Both the position numbers and the translations under genes were made by a program. Source: a virus (Duplodnaviria > Heunggongvirae > Uroviricota > Caudoviricetes). From it: a stretch of 14,700 bases of DNA. The stretch lies in IMG/VR virus record IMGVR_UViG_2529293147_000010; one strand, 5' to 3'. Position 1 is the stretch's first letter; each line of letters begins with the position of its first letter. Positions 2,045 through 14,700 of the stretch are shown piece by piece. The notes beneath the pieces are model-generated. The model was not told the origin of the DNA and made no database searches. It worked only from the letters and a program-made list of their open reading frames with translations.

Positions 2045-3280
2045 CTACGATAACCGCGCATTCAACATGGCTATCTGTTCGTCGTTCATGTCATCAATCC
2101 ACATACCGTAAATTTCATACACCATCTGCGCAGTTTCATGCCCCATTTGGCTGGCTATAAATGCCGGGTTCGCTCCTGCCGTCAACAGCCAGCAGGCAAA
2201 AGTATGCCGCGTATGGTACGGATTACGGCGGCGAATACCAGCACGTTTTACTGCTGCATTCCACCTTGCCCCCAAACTGCTTACCGAGTAATAAGGTTTT
2301 TGTTTTCCGTTACACACCCTGGGCATGAAAACAAAATGCAGTTTTTGCTTTTCGGTTCTGCCGTACTCCCGATGATAAAAGGGGATTTCGCTTTTGCGAT
2401 GATGCCCGGTCAGTTTGTATTGCTCCTTCAGTGCTTCAAGAGCAGGCTGCAGTAGTGTTACTGTTCGGATCCCGGCATTTGTTTTTGGGGGACCGAACAT
2501 ATCAAGTATCGTCAGGTTTCTTCTGACATTCACTATTCCCTTTTCGAGATCCACATCCTCCCACGCCAGAGCTGCCAGTTCCCCGTGACGAAGTCCTGAG
2601 TAAACGGCAAATTTCCACAAGTTCTGGCTCTGTCCTTTTTCACTTTCCATTAATGCATTGAATTCTGTTTTAGATAACGGATCAGGCTTTATTCTGTTTC
2701 GCTGTAATTTTTTTACTCCTTCAAATGGTTTGGTTGATATAAATCCCGACTGATACGCAAAACGCAACAGCGAACAGAGCAGGGCGATATAGTTATCAAC
2801 TGTGCGCACGGTTCTTCCTTTTTTGTTGGATCTTGGATTATCCAGGTAAAGCGTTTCTCCATGCAGCAGTTCATTCCGGTAGTTTAAGATATCGCTATAA
2901 CGAATATGTGATATCGGGGTACTTTCACAAATTATTATTCTGAGTGTTTTTAATTGTGATTTCGTTTTCTTCATTGTGTTTGTTGTTAACTCTGTCTCTT
3001 TAATTTTTGTCCAGATATCACAAAGCTCTCCGAACGTTTTTATGACTCTCGTTGTCACCATTTTTGCCCCAGTGCTGGACTGGGGAAAACGTCTTAAATA
3101 CTCAAATTCACCGGAGTTTATTTCATGAACTATCAGCGCTCTTAAATTTCCGGCCTTTTTAATATTACTGTTTGTAATCTCCCAGCCTTTTAATGTTTCC
3201 CGACATCGTTTTCCTCGAAACATGAACCAGATGCGAATGTATCTACCTCTAATCTCGACACCTGTTGGTAATTTAGACAT
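2045..3280 (-). CDS. intR: Tyrosine site-specific integrase (Rac prophage IntR type)
   Basis: 411-aa ORF beginning MSKLPTGVEIRGRYIRIWF. C-terminal catalytic region has the R...HxxR...Y pattern (NPYHTRHTFACWLL, then MVYEIY). Length and N-terminus match my recollection of K-12 IntR. The xis gene ends 2 nt upstream of its start. Confidence 0.93.
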   Translation of the reverse strand: MSKLPTGVEIRGRYIRIWFMFRGKRCRETLKGWEITNSNIKKAGNLRALIVHEINSGEFEYLRRFPQSSTGAKMVTTRVIKTFGELCDIWTKIKETELTTNTMKKTKSQLKTLRIIICESTPISHIRYSDILNYRNELLHGETLYLDNPRSNKKGRTVRTVDNYIALLCSLLRFAYQSGFISTKPFEGVKKLQRNRIKPDPLSKTEFNALMESEKGQSQNLWKFAVYSGLRHGELAALAWEDVDLEKGIVNVRRNLTILDMFGPPKTNAGIRTVTLLQPALEALKEQYKLTGHHRKSEIPFYHREYGRTEKQKLHFVFMPRVCNGKQKPYYSVSSLGARWNAAVKRAGIRRRNPYHTRHTFACWLLTAGANPAFIASQMGHETAQMVYEIYGMWIDDMNDEQIAMLNARLS

Positions 3281-3281
3281 A

Positions 3282-3497
3282 TCATGAGTCTTTGATAAAC
3301 TGATTTATCTTTGGATAGTTGTACCAGATAATCCCTCGTTTGCTGTCTGGCTTACCTAAAGGAGATACTCGTTTGAAGTGGAAGCCCTCCACCCAACAGT
3401 TCTGGCGGTATGCTTCAATTTGTCTGGCCCCCAGACCAGTGCGAAGCATCAGGCCGTATTCAACCATCCACTCTTCATTAAAGATTACTTGTGCCAT
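3282..3497 (-). CDS. xisR: Excisionase-like small DNA-binding protein (Rac XisR/YdaQ)
   Basis: 71 aa from the internal ATG at 3497 ([16 protein letters not shown]...), with GAGGGG SD about 5 nt upstream. The ORF track's longer 79-aa version starts at a TTG. Classic xis-int arrangement. Confidence 0.85.
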
Positions 3498-3575
3498 CGC
3501 ATCCCCTCTGGCAGGCGCCAATGTTAGACTGAAATTGACGCCCGATGTTGATTATTAATAATCAGCTATGAAGTT

Positions 3576-3785
3576 TTAATTTGAATACAATGCAATTCTC
3601 GAGGACTGAAGTTTCTCGCAATTAAAATTTATCAGTTTTACTTTCTGCTCTCTGGAAACGCCTGCTTCTTTTTTACCTGAGAGCATTTTTTCGCATTCTG
3701 ATTTCGTTAGTTTAGATTTTGAATATCTTGTCCAGTTAGTAGGAGTGCCACCTTCCTTTTCAATAGTGGCGGTAATTTTATACAT
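3576..3785 (-). CDS. rcbA: Rac prophage small protein RcbA/YdaC (reported to reduce chromosome breaks)
   Basis: 69 aa from the ATG at 3785 (MYKITATIEKEGG...), GGAGG SD 6 nt upstream. The track's 93-aa version uses an upstream start. Overlaps the ralR stop by 8 nt. Confidence 0.85.
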   Translation of the reverse strand: MYKITATIEKEGGTPTNWTRYSKSKLTKSECEKMLSGKKEAGVSREQKVKLINFNCEKLQSSRIALYSN

Positions 3786-3972
3786 GAACACCTCCATTAT
3801 TATTTCCAGTGGTTCGTTTATTCCATCTTTCGAGTGCTTCTTTTTCACTTCCACCATAACCGGTTCGGGATTCGCATCCGTTACACTTCGCTCGGTAATA
3901 TCCTGAAATGGCTTTCACCGTTACTGATGGACAACCACAAAATGGACATGGTTTAACATTGTCATATCTCAT
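3778..3972 (-). CDS. ralR: RalR/Lar: restriction-alleviation protein, reported DNase toxin of a type I toxin-antitoxin pair
   Basis: 64 aa from the ATG at 3972 (MRYDNVKPCPFCGCPS...CNGCESRT). Two CxxC pairs suggest a zinc ribbon. Length matches K-12 RalR; SD is weak. Confidence 0.85.
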   Translation of the reverse strand: MRYDNVKPCPFCGCPSVTVKAISGYYRAKCNGCESRTGYGGSEKEALERWNKRTTGNNNGGVHV

Positions 3973-4028
3973 AATTTTTCTCATAAAAAATATTTCAAGT
4001 TGGCGGTGCATTACACCGCCAGGCTGAA

Positions 4029-8715: not shown

Positions 8716-9204
8716 ATGTTGGATGTATTTACTCCATTGTTGAAACTTTTTGCTAAGGAGCCACTCGAAAGACTTATGTATACGATTATCATTTTTGGTC
8801 TCACTCTCTGGCTGATACCGAAAGAGTTTACTGTCGCATTCAACGCTTATACTGAAATACCTTGGCTCTTTCAGATTATCGTTTTTGCCTTTTCTTTCGT
8901 GGTCGCCATTTCCTTCTCAAGATTGCGAGCACATATTCAAAAGCATTATTCATTACTACCAGAGCAACGAGTATTGCTTCGTTTATCTGAGAAAGAAATC
9001 GCTGTATTTAAAGATTTCCTTAAAACAGGAAATCTTATTATCACTTCTCCTTGCCGTAACCCGGTTATGAAAAAATTAGAACGGAAGGGCATCATTCAAC
9101 ATCAGAGTGATAGCGCAAACTGTTCTTATTATCTCGTCACCGAAAAATACTCCCATTTTATGAAGTTATTCTGGAACAGCAGGAGTAGACGTTTTAATCG
9201 TTAG
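8716..9204 (+). CDS. sieB: SieB superinfection exclusion protein B (membrane protein)
   Basis: 162 aa from the ATG at 8716 (MLDVFTPLLKLFAKEPLERLMYTIIIFGLTLWLIP...), with two hydrophobic helices. An in-frame ATG at 8593 would add 41 aa but has no convincing SD. Confidence 0.85.
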   Translation: MLDVFTPLLKLFAKEPLERLMYTIIIFGLTLWLIPKEFTVAFNAYTEIPWLFQIIVFAFSFVVAISFSRLRAHIQKHYSLLPEQRVLLRLSEKEIAVFKDFLKTGNLIITSPCRNPVMKKLERKGIIQHQSDSANCSYYLVTEKYSHFMKLFWNSRSRRFNR

Positions 9205-9356
9205 CTTACTGTGTGCTTCTTCAACCATCGGCGCGCACCAGTTTCGGTTTTAAATGTTTTGCTTTTGGTATACGTCATGGCAGTGAACGTTCCATCCTGG
9301 TTGGGGAACACGCCGCACACCAGGGATTCGTTGTTGCCGAGGTCGATTTTTTGCAT
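9201..9356 (-). CDS. ydaF: YdaF small Rac protein, function unknown
   Basis: Not in the ORF track (51 aa). Hand translation: MQKIDLGNNESLVCGVFPNQDGTFTAMTYTKSKTFKPKTGARRWLKKHTVS. Its stop overlaps the sieB stop on the opposite strand. Confidence 0.7.
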   Translation of the reverse strand: MQKIDLGNNESLVCGVFPNQDGTFTAMTYTKSKTFKTETGARRWLKKHTVS

Positions 9357-9366
9357 TTTGCGAATC

Positions 9367-9501
9367 TCACATCTTGTTGCTACGTATAGCGACTTCTGCC
9401 TGCCAGAGATCCCAGTCGTTGCTGCGTAAAGCCTGCACAGCCTGGTTGTAAGTGATACCGCAACAATCCATCAAATACTGAACTACTTCGTAATGCACCA
9501 T
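9367..9501 (-). CDS. ydaG: YdaG small Rac protein, function unknown; first gene of the leftward operon
   Basis: Not in the ORF track (44 aa). Hand translation: MVHYEVVQYLMDCCGITYNQAVQALRSNDWDLWQAEVAIRSNKM. Strong SD AAGGGGAGAG upstream of the ATG at 9501. Confidence 0.7.
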   Translation of the reverse strand: MVHYEVVQYLMDCCGITYNQAVQALRSNDWDLWQAEVAIRSNKM

Positions 9502-9670
9502 CTTATCTCTCCCCTTAACGCCGGGTGGCGGAACTAACTACTGCACTGCAAAATTTGAATCCCGCCGTCATGTTCATACGCCTCGGGCTGGCTACTTAAC
9601 CCCTTACCACTGCCTGGTAACTCGAAGTATTGCCCGGCGTTCTGTGGGGCGGGGGGGGTGGTATGCTGGA

Positions 9671-9716
9671 ACTATAGGTAATGCCTAATTGATTGTCAAT
9701 AGGCTATGCCTAATGT
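9671..9716 (-). promoter_or_regulatory. Leftward early promoter (pL analogue) with embedded repressor operator sites
   Basis: On the minus strand: TTGACA (9699-9694), 17-nt spacer, TATAGT (9676-9671). The operator half-site TTAGGC occurs upstream of -35 and inside the spacer. The 24-nt block CATTAGGCATAGCCTATTGACAAT is near-identical to the block in the racR-ydaS region. Confidence 0.55.
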
Positions 9717-9809
9717 TTTGAGCGTAACCTAATAGGTGATGGCGACAGCAGAAAGTGATGGGGGGGTTAAATAACGGAATCCAGGAGTTTTCCGTCAGAC
9801 CATATAAGT

Positions 9810-10286
9810 TTAAGTTCCAGTTTTTGTGATGTTCTGGCTTTTCCGTTCAGATTCTAGAGCTTTCAGATACTTACCCACTTTCATTTCCATCGCTGCTATA
9901 TAGGCGCGAACATCGTGGTCAACCCAATCTGGTTCTGTAGCATTTCCAGATAACAGGAAAGCTACAATCGCTCTTATTTCATCAGAGGCTGCTTGATAAA
10001 GGTTGTTTATATCTAAAATTTCACTTTTTGTATCTGAATTGGTGGGGGTTGGTATGGGGTATTCGTTAAGCCCCCAATGCTCTGGACCAACAACATCAGA
10101 AAAGAAACGCCATAATTCTGGAAGTTTATCTTTACTTATAGAGCCTTTCTTAATCCAGTCATAAATTGATGGTGGTTGGACTTTGAAGTGGCGTGCGACC
10201 TCCGCCTTTGATTTGACGGATCCCGATGCGATTTTTTTGTTAATGGCCTGCTCTATCGCTCGGCCTAAGTCTTTACCACTAAGCAT
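9810..10286 (-). CDS. racR: RacR, prophage immunity repressor (HTH DNA-binding protein)
   Basis: 158-aa ORF (MLSGKDLGRAIEQAINKKIASGSVKSKAEVARHFKVQPPSIYDWIKKG...) with an N-terminal HTH. AGGAGA SD about 10 nt upstream. Divergent from ydaS, in a cI/cro-like arrangement. Confidence 0.9.
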   Translation of the reverse strand: MLSGKDLGRAIEQAINKKIASGSVKSKAEVARHFKVQPPSIYDWIKKGSISKDKLPELWRFFSDVVGPEHWGLNEYPIPTPTNSDTKSEILDINNLYQAASDEIRAIVAFLLSGNATEPDWVDHDVRAYIAAMEMKVGKYLKALESERKSQNITKTGT

Positions 10287-10312
10287 TGCTTAATATTCTC
10301 CTATGCGCATTA

Positions 10313-10390
10313 CATTAGGCAATCCCTACCCTTACCGCATTAGGCACAGCCTATTGACAATTGCGTTAGGCGTCGCCTAATATTTCTGTG
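10313..10390 (+). promoter_or_regulatory. Rightward early promoter (pR analogue) plus operators in the racR-ydaS divergent region
   Basis: TTGACA (10354-10359), 18-nt spacer, TAATAT (10378-10383). A perfect 15-bp palindrome TTAGGCGTCGCCTAA (10366-10380) overlaps the spacer and -10. A 13/15 palindrome TTAGGCACAGCCTAT sits just upstream of -35, with a further TTAGGC half-site at 10315. GGAG SD 9 nt before the ydaS ATG. Confidence 0.6.
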
Positions 10391-10409
10391 TGTTTTTGGA
10401 GTTCATTCG

Positions 10410-10706
10410 ATGAAAAAAGAGAACTATTCATTCAAGCAAGCTTGTGCTGTTGTCGGTGGGCAATCAGCAATGGCTAGGCTTTTAGGTGTATCACCTCCAA
10501 GCGTAAATCAATGGATCAAAGGGGTACGTCAATTGCCTGCCGAGAGATGTCCAGCAATTGAACGTGCAACAAGAGGTGAGGTTCTGTGCGAAGAACTTCG
10601 TCCTGATATTGACTGGTCATATTTACGACGTTCGGCATGTTGTTCGCAGAATATGTCAGTGAAGCAACTAAATGACAGTAACAAATCCTCATTTGATCAT
10701 ACCTGA
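10410..10706 (+). CDS. ydaS: YdaS, Cro-like HTH regulator (toxic when derepressed, by published reports)
   Basis: 98-aa ORF with an HTH segment (QSAMARLLGVSPPSVNQWIKG); first gene downstream of the pR-like promoter. Confidence 0.9.
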   Translation: MKKENYSFKQACAVVGGQSAMARLLGVSPPSVNQWIKGVRQLPAERCPAIERATRGEVLCEELRPDIDWSYLRRSACCSQNMSVKQLNDSNKSSFDHT

Positions 10707-10728
10707 AACATCAAGAGGCAAATGATTC

Positions 10729-11151
10729 ATGAAAATCAAGCATGAGCACATCGAATCAGTGTTGTTAGCCCTGGCTGCTGAAAAAGGGCAGGCATGGGTA
10801 GCCAATGCCATTACTGAAGAATATCTGCGCCAGGGGGGCGGCGAATTGCCCCTGGTACCAGGCAAGGACTGGAACAATCAGCAGAATATCTATCACCGTT
10901 GGTTGAAAGGTGAAACGAAAGCGCAAAGGGAAAAAATTCAGAAACTGATCCCTGCGGTTCTGGCAATCCTTCCGCGCGAGCTGCGTCACCGACTCTGCAT
11001 CTTCGATACCCTGGAACGCCGTGCATTACTGGCGGCGCAGGAAGCGTTAAGTACGGCAATTGATGCGCATGATGATGCAGTCCAGGCCGTTTACCGGAAA
11101 GCGCATTTCAGCGGCGGCGGGTCTTCCGACGATTCTGTCATTGTTCATTAA
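10729..11151 (+). CDS. ydaT: YdaT (cII-like regulator / toxic partner of YdaS, by published reports)
   Basis: 140-aa ORF (MKIKHEHIESVLLALAAEKGQAWVANAITEEYLRQ...), AAGAGG SD about 10 nt upstream; sits in the cII-equivalent position. Confidence 0.9.
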   Translation: MKIKHEHIESVLLALAAEKGQAWVANAITEEYLRQGGGELPLVPGKDWNNQQNIYHRWLKGETKAQREKIQKLIPAVLAILPRELRHRLCIFDTLERRALLAAQEALSTAIDAHDDAVQAVYRKAHFSGGGSSDDSVIVH

Positions 11152-11163
11152 GCAAAAGTTTCC

Positions 11164-12021
11164 ATGCTGTTTGTGCTTATTCTAAGCAACCGGGCAGCAT
11201 CATACGGGGCAATTATGGCCGCATTACCATACATGCAACTGTACATAGCTGATTACCTGGCTGACACCATGCATTTGTCAGCAGAGGAGCATGGTGCGTA
11301 TTTGTTGCTGATGTTCAATTACTGGCAAACAGGAAAGCCAATACCTAAAAACAGGCTGGCAAAAATTGCCCGTCTGACTAACGAGCGATGGGCTGATGTT
11401 GAACCATCCTTGCAGGAGTTTTTTTGCGATAACGGCGAGGAATGGGTGCATCTTCGGATTGAGGAAGATCTGGCATCAGTCAGGGAAAAATTAACCAAAA
11501 AATCAGCCGCAGGAAAAGCATCTGTTCAGGCCAGAAGAAGCAGAAAGGAAGCAGATGTTCAAACAAAACAAGAGAGAAATTTAACAGGTGTTCAAACAGA
11601 TGTTGAAGTGGTGTTTGAACATGATGTCAACACAAAGGCAACTAATAAAGATACAGATAAAGATCTAAAAAAAGATCCCCCCCTAAATCCCCCCCGGGGG
11701 AATCGAGGTGTCAAAAAGTTTGACCCTCTGGATATTGCTTTGCCGAACTGGATTTCTGTCTCGCTTTGGCGTGAGTGGGTTGAATTTCGCCAGGCATTGC
11801 GTAAACCGATTCGAACGGAGCAGGGTGCTAACGGGGCGATACGGGAGCTGGAAAAATTCCGCCAGCAGGGTTTTTCACCTGAGCAGGTGATTCGACACAG
11901 CATCGCCAATGAATACCAGGGCTTGTTCGCGCCAAAAGGTGTTCGACCTGAGACGTTACTCCGACAGGTTAACACCGTCTCGTTACCGGATAGTGCGATC
12001 CCGCCAGGCTTCAGGGGGTAA
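11164..12021 (+). CDS. ydaU: YdaU, replication-module protein (DUF1376-type, O-like position)
   Basis: 285-aa ORF directly upstream of the DnaC-like loader. The first ATG lacks a clear SD; a downstream ATG at about 11215 is an alternative start. Confidence 0.85.
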   Translation: MLFVLILSNRAASYGAIMAALPYMQLYIADYLADTMHLSAEEHGAYLLLMFNYWQTGKPIPKNRLAKIARLTNERWADVEPSLQEFFCDNGEEWVHLRIEEDLASVREKLTKKSAAGKASVQARRSRKEADVQTKQERNLTGVQTDVEVVFEHDVNTKATNKDTDKDLKKDPPLNPPRGNRGVKKFDPLDIALPNWISVSLWREWVEFRQALRKPIRTEQGANGAIRELEKFRQQGFSPEQVIRHSIANEYQGLFAPKGVRPETLLRQVNTVSLPDSAIPPGFRG

Positions 12022-13558: not shown

Positions 13559-13573
13559 TTGCCGGAGGCGCTT

Positions 13574-13903
13574 ATGGCAAAAGTATTTACACAAGAAGGG
13601 CGGGAAAAAATTAAAGGGCAGGTTGTTGAACTCGTGCGCCAGAGTGGGCGCGAGACGTTACGACAACTGGAAGCTAAGACAGGTGCGACAAGATATCTGA
13701 TGAACCTTCTTGCCAGAGAATTGGTTGCGAGCGGTGATGTATACAACTCTGGTTACGGGTTATTTCCCTCAGAACAGGTTCGTAAAGACTGGCAAAACGC
13801 CCGCAAAAAACTATCAAGGGCAAAGGTGAAGAAACCGGTTGTGGTTGATCCTGACCTTATCTGGTCATTACCTGACGGAGAAATCCGTCGCCTTAGTCTT
13901 TGA
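13574..13903 (+). CDS. Hypothetical 109-aa protein with a winged-helix-like segment; no counterpart I recognise in K-12 Rac
   Basis: ATG at 13574 with GGAGG SD 5 nt upstream (MAKVFTQEGREKIKGQVVELVRQSGRETLRQLEAKTGATRYLMNLLARELVASGDVY...). Translationally close-coupled to the ydaW-like gene. Confidence 0.65.
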   Translation: MAKVFTQEGREKIKGQVVELVRQSGRETLRQLEAKTGATRYLMNLLARELVASGDVYNSGYGLFPSEQVRKDWQNARKKLSRAKVKKPVVVDPDLIWSLPDGEIRRLSL

Positions 13904-13938
13904 TAATAGGTTTATAATGTTGAAAAAGAGTCTAATAG

Positions 13939-13969
13939 TTGACATTGTATGAAATATGATTGTTATATA
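13939..13969 (+). promoter_or_regulatory. Strong sigma70-like promoter in an AT-rich island
   Basis: TTGACA at 13939-13944; TG-extended TATATA at 13961-13969 (spacer about 19 nt). A perfect TATAAT also at 13913-13918. AAGG SD precedes the ATG at 14005. Confidence 0.4.
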
Positions 13970-14004
13970 AAATGATTTTTTTGGATACTGTTTAAGGTAA
14001 ACAA

Positions 14005-14157
14005 ATGAAACCAGAATACTTAAGAAAAATAGAATCATTGCAACGTGAGGTTGATGATTTCCATCCAGTGCTAAGAGCGCTTCTACCACGTTTGCCGACT
14101 GTTACACATGTTGAATATAAGCAAGGACCATCAGAAAAAGGTGCTGATTTTGGGTGA
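14005..14157 (+). pseudogene. AT-rich orphan ORF cut off by IS1: 50 codons of an unknown gene, with the stop codon supplied by the IS1 terminal inverted repeat
   Basis: MKPEYLRKIESLQREVDDFHPVLRALLPRLPTVTHVEYKQGPSEKGADFG, then TGA lying inside the IS1 end sequence GGTGATGCTGCC. Has its own promoter and SD. I do not recognise the product. Confidence 0.4.
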
Positions 14158-14207
14158 TGCTGCCAACTTACTGATTTAGTGTATGATGGTGTTTTTGAGG
14201 TGCTCCA

Positions 14208-14483
14208 GTGGCTTCTGTTTCTATCAGCTGTCCCTCCTGTTCAGCTACTGACGGGGTGGTGCGTAACGGCAAAAGCACTGCCGGACATCAGCGCTATCTC
14301 TGCTCTCACTGCCGTAAAACATGGCAACTGCAGTTCACTTACACCGCTTCTCAACCCGGTACGCACCAGAAAATTATTGATATGGCCATGAATGGCGTTG
14401 GATGCCGGGCAACTGCACGCATTATGGGCGTTAGCCTCAACACGATTTTACGTCACTTAAAAAACTCAGGCCGCAGTCGGTAA
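14208..14483 (+). CDS. insA: IS1 InsA (transposition inhibitor / N-terminal part of the InsAB' transposase)
   Basis: 91 aa with a GTG start ([40 protein letters not shown]...), zinc-finger CxxC pairs and an HTH. Confidence 0.9.
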
Positions 14484-14700
14484 CCTCGCGCATACAGCCG
14501 GGCAGTGACGTCATCGTCTGCGCGGAAATGGACGAACAGTGGGGCTATGTCGGGGCTAAATCGCGCCAGCGCTGGCTGTTTTACGCGTATGACAGTCTCC
14601 GGAAGACGGTTGTTGCGCACGTATTCGGTGAACGCACTATGGCGACGCTGGGGCGTCTTATGAGCCTGCTGTCACCCTTTGACGTGGTGATATGGATGAC
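14465..14700 (+). CDS. insB: IS1 InsB' reading frame (-1 relative to insA), 5' part only; expressed as the InsAB' fusion by programmed -1 frameshift
   Basis: A6C slippery motif at 14459-14465 inside TTAAAAAACTC. The downstream -1 frame translates to [37 protein letters not shown]...DVVIWM, open to the window end. Confidence 0.8.

Follow-up and report, generated by a model that had tools for sequence, protein, structure and literature searches.

A 50-codon reading frame in a Rac-type prophage is very probably the 5′ stump of a bNACHT25 allele interrupted by IS1

The AT-rich feature near the right end of the window, i.e. of the whole stretch of 14,700 nucleotides that was analysed, is most convincingly explained as the 5′ stump of a bNACHT25 allele (identical to WP_033801850.1) that was knocked out by a simple IS1 insertion. 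The probability of this reading was estimated at roughly 95%, and no evidence contradicting it was found. The gene itself has been described before, with experiments on its function, and there is nothing out of the ordinary in its disruption by IS1. What the sequences show directly are both junctions, the target duplication, the continuation of the frame past IS1 and the match to the accession; defence activity and mechanism are taken from the literature.

The coding part of the feature and the element that follows it consist of these parts:

14005–14157, + strand: ORF of 50 amino acids (MKPEYLRK...GADFG), the peptide quoted in the original prediction
14005–14152, + strand: codons 1–49 and the first base of codon 50 of the bNACHT25 allele, identical to the intact gene through 14152
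14145–14152, + strand: left copy of the 8-bp IS1 target-site duplication TGATTTTG, with its flanks read in the sister contig L003
14146–14148, + strand: codon of the catalytic residue D48, within GADF
14153–14700, + strand: first 548 of the 768 bp of an IS1A-like IS1, in the orientation of the gene; the contig end falls within the element
14153–14175, + strand: left inverted repeat (IRL) of IS1 (GGTGATGCTGCCAACTTACTGAT)
14155–14157, + strand: adventitious TGA stop codon from the IS1 inverted repeat
14208–14483, + strand: insA, 91 amino acids

The window DNA corresponds to the uninterrupted gene at locus L001 (100% identical) up to position 14152 and continues as IS1 from there. Because the IRL begins at 14153, the TGA of the ORF (14005–14157) lies inside IS1, just as had been noticed from the sequence at the outset, and codon 50 (GGG) combines one G of the target with GG of IS1. 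The IS1 of the window was 97–98% identical to annotated IS1A copies when compared with complete E. coli genomes by megablast.

The window stops within IS1, and the far junction was taken from L003, a contig of 78.7 kb from the same lineage. L003 has the same left junction and carries the full IS1 of 768 bp at 10149–10916. Both terminal inverted repeats of about 23 bp (GGTGATGCTGCCAACTTACTGAT and GGTAATGACTCCAACTTATTGAT) are present in this copy, and its transposase gene is matched by the Pfam families Zn_ribbon_InsA, HTH_Tnp_IS1 and DDE_Tnp_IS1. The 3′ end of the element reads ...AAGTTGGAGTCATTACC and is followed by TGATTTTGTCATAATTAAA... in the adjoining DNA. The flanks are ...GCTGATTTTG on the left and TGATTTTGTCATAA on the right, with the 8-bp TGATTTTG on both sides. 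Target duplications of IS1 usually measure 8 or 9 bp, 8 bp being the less common size. When the element was excised from L003 together with 8 bp, an ORF of 2259 nt (752 codons) was obtained, whereas the removal of 9 bp broke the frame. Beyond IS1, L003 contains an ORF of 710 amino acids with the Pfam domains NACHT and NCH1 that reaches the natural stop codon. The original prediction had held that a gene was cut by IS1 and had proposed to sequence past the far end of the element for the 3′ remainder and a duplication. L003 supplied both, in frame, and the cut is documented there by the 768-bp element with its 8-bp duplication.

A similar picture could arise from an assembly artefact if the repeat had caused an IS1 copy to be joined chimerically to a contig end, and the contig does terminate inside IS1. 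Between 14375 and 14596, the IS1 of the window differs from the one in L003 at 10 positions, compared to only 4 in the 10 kb flank. The likely cause of these 10 differences is that reads from several IS1 copies were collapsed where the contig ends, which would fit an artefact; gene conversion between IS1 copies is the alternative explanation for them. However, 16 contigs from different assemblies share this junction, and L003 spans the whole element. The 8-bp duplication matches at both ends and is therefore a real transposition signature. The artefact was rejected on the 16 contigs and the duplication at both ends, and was left with next to no probability.

The junction was absent from 5426 complete E. 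coli genomes (megablast with 13700–14700 as query) and, in an exact search, from the GTDB contigs with one genome per species. The latter was expected, because the representative E. coli does not have the junction. Judged by these sequence collections, the insertion appears to be confined to a draft-genome lineage.

The rebuilt ORF showed 0 nucleotide differences from WP_033801850.1 (strain CFSAN061771), the L001 gene. In comparison with WP_001702659.1 (L002, strain LC-1302-2020), 9 of the 752 amino acids differed, which corresponds to 98.8% protein identity. WP_001702659.1 is the bNACHT25 of E. coli ECOR11 (Kibby et al. 2022, bioRxiv 10.1101/2022.07.19.500537, legend of Fig. S9), and the accession is also given for bNACHT25 by Conte et al. 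2025 (PMC12169576, Accession numbers). In RefSeq, the intact gene bears the name "NACHT domain-containing protein".

The domains of the protein were read in the intact allele and in L003, the NACHT module being located outside the window itself. NACHT was found in the intact allele with 36.7 bits (cutoff 26.7) and again beyond IS1 in L003. NCH1 was matched at residues 576–741 with 133 bits (E 1.2e-38), and the remnant in L003 matched as well. The hit for Mrr_cat at residues 23–143 was weak with 17 bits, i.e. below the cutoff of 21. The intact allele also has a Walker A motif (GTVGSGKST) at 220, a Walker B motif (LLIVDSVDE) at 285 and D48 in GADF. PADLOC-DB v2 returned generic P-loop matches only and its library is apparently without a model for bNACHT clade 6, while a sequence search of the PDB gave no meaningful relative.

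An inactivated accessory or defence gene, originally longer and still intact in related prophages, had been suspected from the window alone. The suspicion agrees with all of these results: the uninterrupted alleles encode 752 amino acids, the gene is an allele of bNACHT25 (WP_001702659.1), and 16 complete genomes match at least 80% of the query 13850–14152. A frame that fails to continue beyond IS1, or an intact protein of about 50 amino acids, had been named as contrary outcomes; the frame does continue and the intact protein has 752 amino acids. The remark that the peptide matches nothing that can be named had to be corrected: a published protein begins with this peptide, which opens its reported Mrr-like/PD-(D/E)XK nuclease effector domain.

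Gene callers label the 50-codon ORF as a hypothetical protein (e.g. EMX58175.1), and an exact look-up found its product on 16 NCBI contigs from different assemblies. With this annotation and with a plausible promoter, Shine-Dalgarno sequence and ATG, it might be regarded as a genuine small gene (a moron) whose likeness to the longer gene is incidental. This is extremely improbable. The stop codon comes from IS1, the DNA matches the opening 148 nt of the 2259-nt gene at 100% identity, the remainder of that gene follows in frame past IS1, and Pfam finds nothing in the 50-aa fragment alone. A true small ORF was ruled out by the identity to the intact gene together with the in-frame continuation. 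The peptide would rather be a by-product of the IS1 insertion than the product of a separate gene.

The protein cluster of the 50-aa stump has further short members, of 53 aa from E. coli, 47 aa from Enterobacter roggenkampii and 55 aa from an ENA metagenome. They may point to additional truncations that arose independently in other lineages or genera. The full-length gene is recorded in Citrobacter freundii, too.

Upstream of the start codon, these features were located:

13559–13903, + strand: DUF977 (ydaW-like) gene, C-terminally truncated at the start of the cassette (Pfam E 1.7e-16, profile positions 1–99 of 134)
13892–14152, + strand: left end of the AT-rich bNACHT25 cargo cassette (GC 0.322, 100% identical to L001)
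13939–13969, + strand: putative sigma-70 promoter with TTGACA at 13939–13944, a spacer of 19 nt and the extended −10 element TGtTATATA at 13961–13969
13993–13998, + strand: Shine-Dalgarno sequence TAAGGT, with the ATG 6 nt downstream

The GC content was between 0.31 and 0.35 over 13800–14100, compared to 0.47–0.55 in the replication genes before. The AT-rich stretch starts at 13892, and its value to 14152 (0.322) is that of the AT-rich island described in the original prediction. Its account of the genes upstream was equally accurate, as a ydaU-like DUF1376 gene, ydaV (IstB/DnaC-like), DUF1627 and DUF977 (ydaW-like) were found, and TAAGGT at its distance of 6 nt is the good Shine-Dalgarno sequence that had been pointed out. 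The promoter, which had been called near-consensus, stood in part: the hexamers TTGACA and TGtTATATA are present, but the spacer of 19 nt is outside the usual 16–18 nt, and a consensus scan allowing spacers of 16–18 nt called no + strand promoter in the intergenic region. These elements are plausible as an extended −10 promoter with good hexamers, yet not as a near-consensus promoter. The bNACHT genes in published work were driven by their native upstream promoter regions (Conte et al. 2025, PMC12169576, among other sources). A working promoter must therefore be present upstream of the ATG, for which these elements are the putative position.

The cassette interrupts a region that is otherwise shared by many prophages. 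RefSeq marks the DUF977 ORF at its left border as 'missing C-terminus'. With the 303-bp query 13850–14152, 16 complete E. coli genomes matched over at least 80% of the length and a 17th only over a 63-nt part. About 1500 genomes matched nothing but query nt 1–42 (13850–13891), which means that homology ends at about 13891, within the 3′-terminal part of DUF977. Matching starts again some 226 nt past the stop codon of the gene, upstream of hokD; the right boundary was placed by the point where genomes without the gene match again (query nt 227). In intact loci, the full AT-rich cassette measures about 2.6 kb (L001, ~9043–11640). A terminator-like hairpin (TGACGGAGAAATCCGTCG) with a T-rich tail is found at 13873–13899, just where the shared DUF977 sequence runs out, homology stops (13891) and the cassette begins.

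In the annotated loci that were examined, a Rac-type prophage carries, in this order, recET, racC, kilR, sieB, ydaSTUV, DUF1627, the truncated DUF977 gene and directly after it the bNACHT25 gene, then hokD, late genes and trkG. In BL21(DE3), the slot is empty and hokD directly follows DUF977. Two other hypothetical genes occupy it in EC17CM7. In the corresponding part of strain A8, DUF977 is followed by an Ea22-like gene and a ParDE module, with no hokD annotated. This variety supports the earlier view that the position collects accessory cargo. In the phage collection, only the DUF977 flank and not the bNACHT25 gene was found. The gene is absent from BL21(DE3) and its cassette has a GC content of 0.32 as opposed to about 0.5 in the flanks, which characterises it as a presumably autonomous cargo cassette with a putative promoter. 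In the literature searched, no paper was found that links bNACHT25 to the variable DUF977–hokD slot of Rac-type prophages.

The two genes in the slot of EC17CM7 (L015, NZ_CP190027.1, 1349–3328) are unannotated and encode 320 and 333 amino acids. They gave sub-threshold Pfam hits only (HEPN_RES_NTD1, GNAT) and no match in PADLOC, and may represent a different, uncharacterised cargo or defence pair. At the other end of the window, a MASE4-GGDEF diguanylate cyclase gene at 125–1456 (− strand) belongs to the host flank and is followed at 2045–4011 (− strand) by a Rac-type integrase, an excisionase (DUF1233), DUF1187 and a Lar/RalR-like restriction-alleviation gene. With the host flank and the integrase at the left, the window therefore covers the prophage from its left end through the cargo slot.

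The function of the intact gene is known from published work. Together with bNACHT32, bNACHT25 forms clade 6 of the bacterial NLR-related proteins, in which a PD-(D/E)XK DNase at the N-terminus is followed by a NACHT module and, at the C-terminus, by NCH1 (PMC12169576). The exchange D48A abolishes both defence and the infection-triggered degradation of DNA (PMC12169576). Protection was reported against T2, T4 and MS2-like ssRNA phages. The coat protein of MS2 activates bNACHT25 without binding to it, and activation requires the host chaperone DnaJ as well as the DnaJ–DnaK interaction, which suggests a guard-type mechanism. The guard model was cited by a 2026 Nature paper. For the intact allele, this gives the following picture. 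The cargo cassette carries one gene, preceded by a promoter region of its own, and this gene encodes a STAND/NLR-related protein of 752 aa. Its helical NCH1 domain and NACHT NTPase module would sense infection indirectly and dependent on DnaJ/DnaK. This would activate the N-terminal Mrr-like PD-(D/E)XK DNase, so that DNA is degraded and phage production halted.

In the window lineage, IS1 inserted into the AT-rich coding sequence directly after codon 49, whereby TGATTTTG was duplicated. Translation that begins at the native start codon meets the TGA of the terminal repeat after 50 residues, and the other 703 codons lie beyond IS1, cut off from the promoter and the start codon by 768 bp. Since IS1 is located one codon past D48, the interrupted allele is most likely a null, and we infer loss of function in the window strain. 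An in-frame TTG could in principle start a ΔN47 protein, so that complete loss of the protein is a presumption.

This TTG would matter if IS1 split the gene and did not kill it. A protein of 710 amino acids would then start from the TTG in the right inverted repeat of IS1 via read-through transcription and translational coupling, keep D48, NACHT and NCH1, and show altered, attenuated or dominant-negative activity. The TTG (L003, 10903) is indeed in frame with the remainder (MESLPDFVIIK...) and only 1 nt past the TAA of insB at 10899–10901; the target duplication regenerates the D48 codon, and the downstream part is free of further mutations (0 nt differences). However, a Shine-Dalgarno sequence is absent ahead of the TTG, which is preceded by AACACTATCAATAAG. 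The product would be without residues 1–47, while the weak Mrr_cat match covers residues 23–143, and the core of its nuclease domain would therefore be incomplete. RefSeq annotates a remnant of 650 amino acids instead. The expression of the IS1 transposase is normally very low, which also counts against a coupled product. A split but active gene is thus very unlikely.

It is likewise very unlikely that IS1 serves to switch a costly abortive-infection DNase reversibly or in part. For this, rare events of precise excision between the two 8-bp copies would have to restore a fully intact bNACHT25, or a TTG-initiated ΔN47 protein would have to modulate or poison NLR oligomers. Recurrent and independent 5′ knock-outs would then reflect selection against autoimmunity caused by bNACHT25 and not neutral decay. 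The knock-outs to be counted would be IS1 in the window lineage, IS3 in GPEC1446 and the frameshifts in the A8 and T7 homopolymers.

Disrupted copies were present in 4 of the 17 complete genomes carrying the gene (the 16 and GPEC1446), i.e. in about a quarter. In GPEC1446 (L016, NZ_CM142773.1, 4808–6003), the right end of an IS3 abuts nt ~86 of bNACHT25; the deletion has taken the first ~28 codons together with the promoter and the remnant of DUF977, which makes it a second, independent IS-linked 5′ truncation. The Rac prophage of GPEC1446 also has an IS1-associated deletion from recT to ydaU and an IS1A downstream of the bNACHT25 gene. FDAARGOS_1249 has a T7-to-T8 frameshift at nt 646, and 19KM1766N and LD67-1 have an A8-to-A7 frameshift at nt 779 in two different allelic backgrounds. 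The homopolymer frameshifts split bNACHT25 into two ORFs (L012, 5152–7411; L017, 3152–5409; L013, 5160–7417). They are either recurrent slippage or homopolymer errors of long-read sequencing; as the latter is possible, nothing was built on them. If a DNase that guards DnaJ is costly, disruption in about a quarter of the genomes would be in line with this, but some of the cases could be sequencing errors.

The knock-out of bNACHT25 has little significance beyond annotation. The 50-aa hypothetical protein (e.g. EMX58175.1) and the 650-aa NACHT remnant should be merged as one IS1-disrupted bNACHT25 pseudogene, and strains with the IS1 allele should be scored as bNACHT25-negative in censuses of defence systems.

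Compared with known systems, the case resembles the insertional pseudogenes that IS1 has produced in E. coli and Shigella. It shares with them the 768-bp IS1, the 23-bp terminal repeats, the 8-bp duplication and the AT-rich target, and there is nothing unusual about it. The closest relative of the interrupted gene is bNACHT25 itself (WP_001702659.1). Both lie in a Rac prophage after a truncated DUF977 gene, have the same length of 752 amino acids and the same order of a putative PD-(D/E)XK/Mrr-like REase, NACHT and NCH1, and keep D48. Once IS1 is taken out, 743 of 752 residues are identical. The differences are nine conservative substitutions and the IS1 after codon 49, by which the gene of the window lineage is broken and should be non-functional.

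bNACHT32 (WP_057688292) belongs to the same clade, with the same architecture and the same requirement for D48, and has a published identity of 81% to bNACHT25. It is a more distant paralogue or allele and not the gene in the window. A wider similarity exists to the Avs/AVAST STAND NTPases with nuclease effectors, which follow the same tripartite logic of N-terminal effector, central STAND NTPase and C-terminal sensor and, like bNACHT25, are single-gene and often prophage-borne defence systems. Avs proteins bind phage proteins directly, whereas bNACHT25 is reported to sense infection indirectly via DnaJ, and it uses a NACHT module as its NTPase and NCH1 as its sensor.
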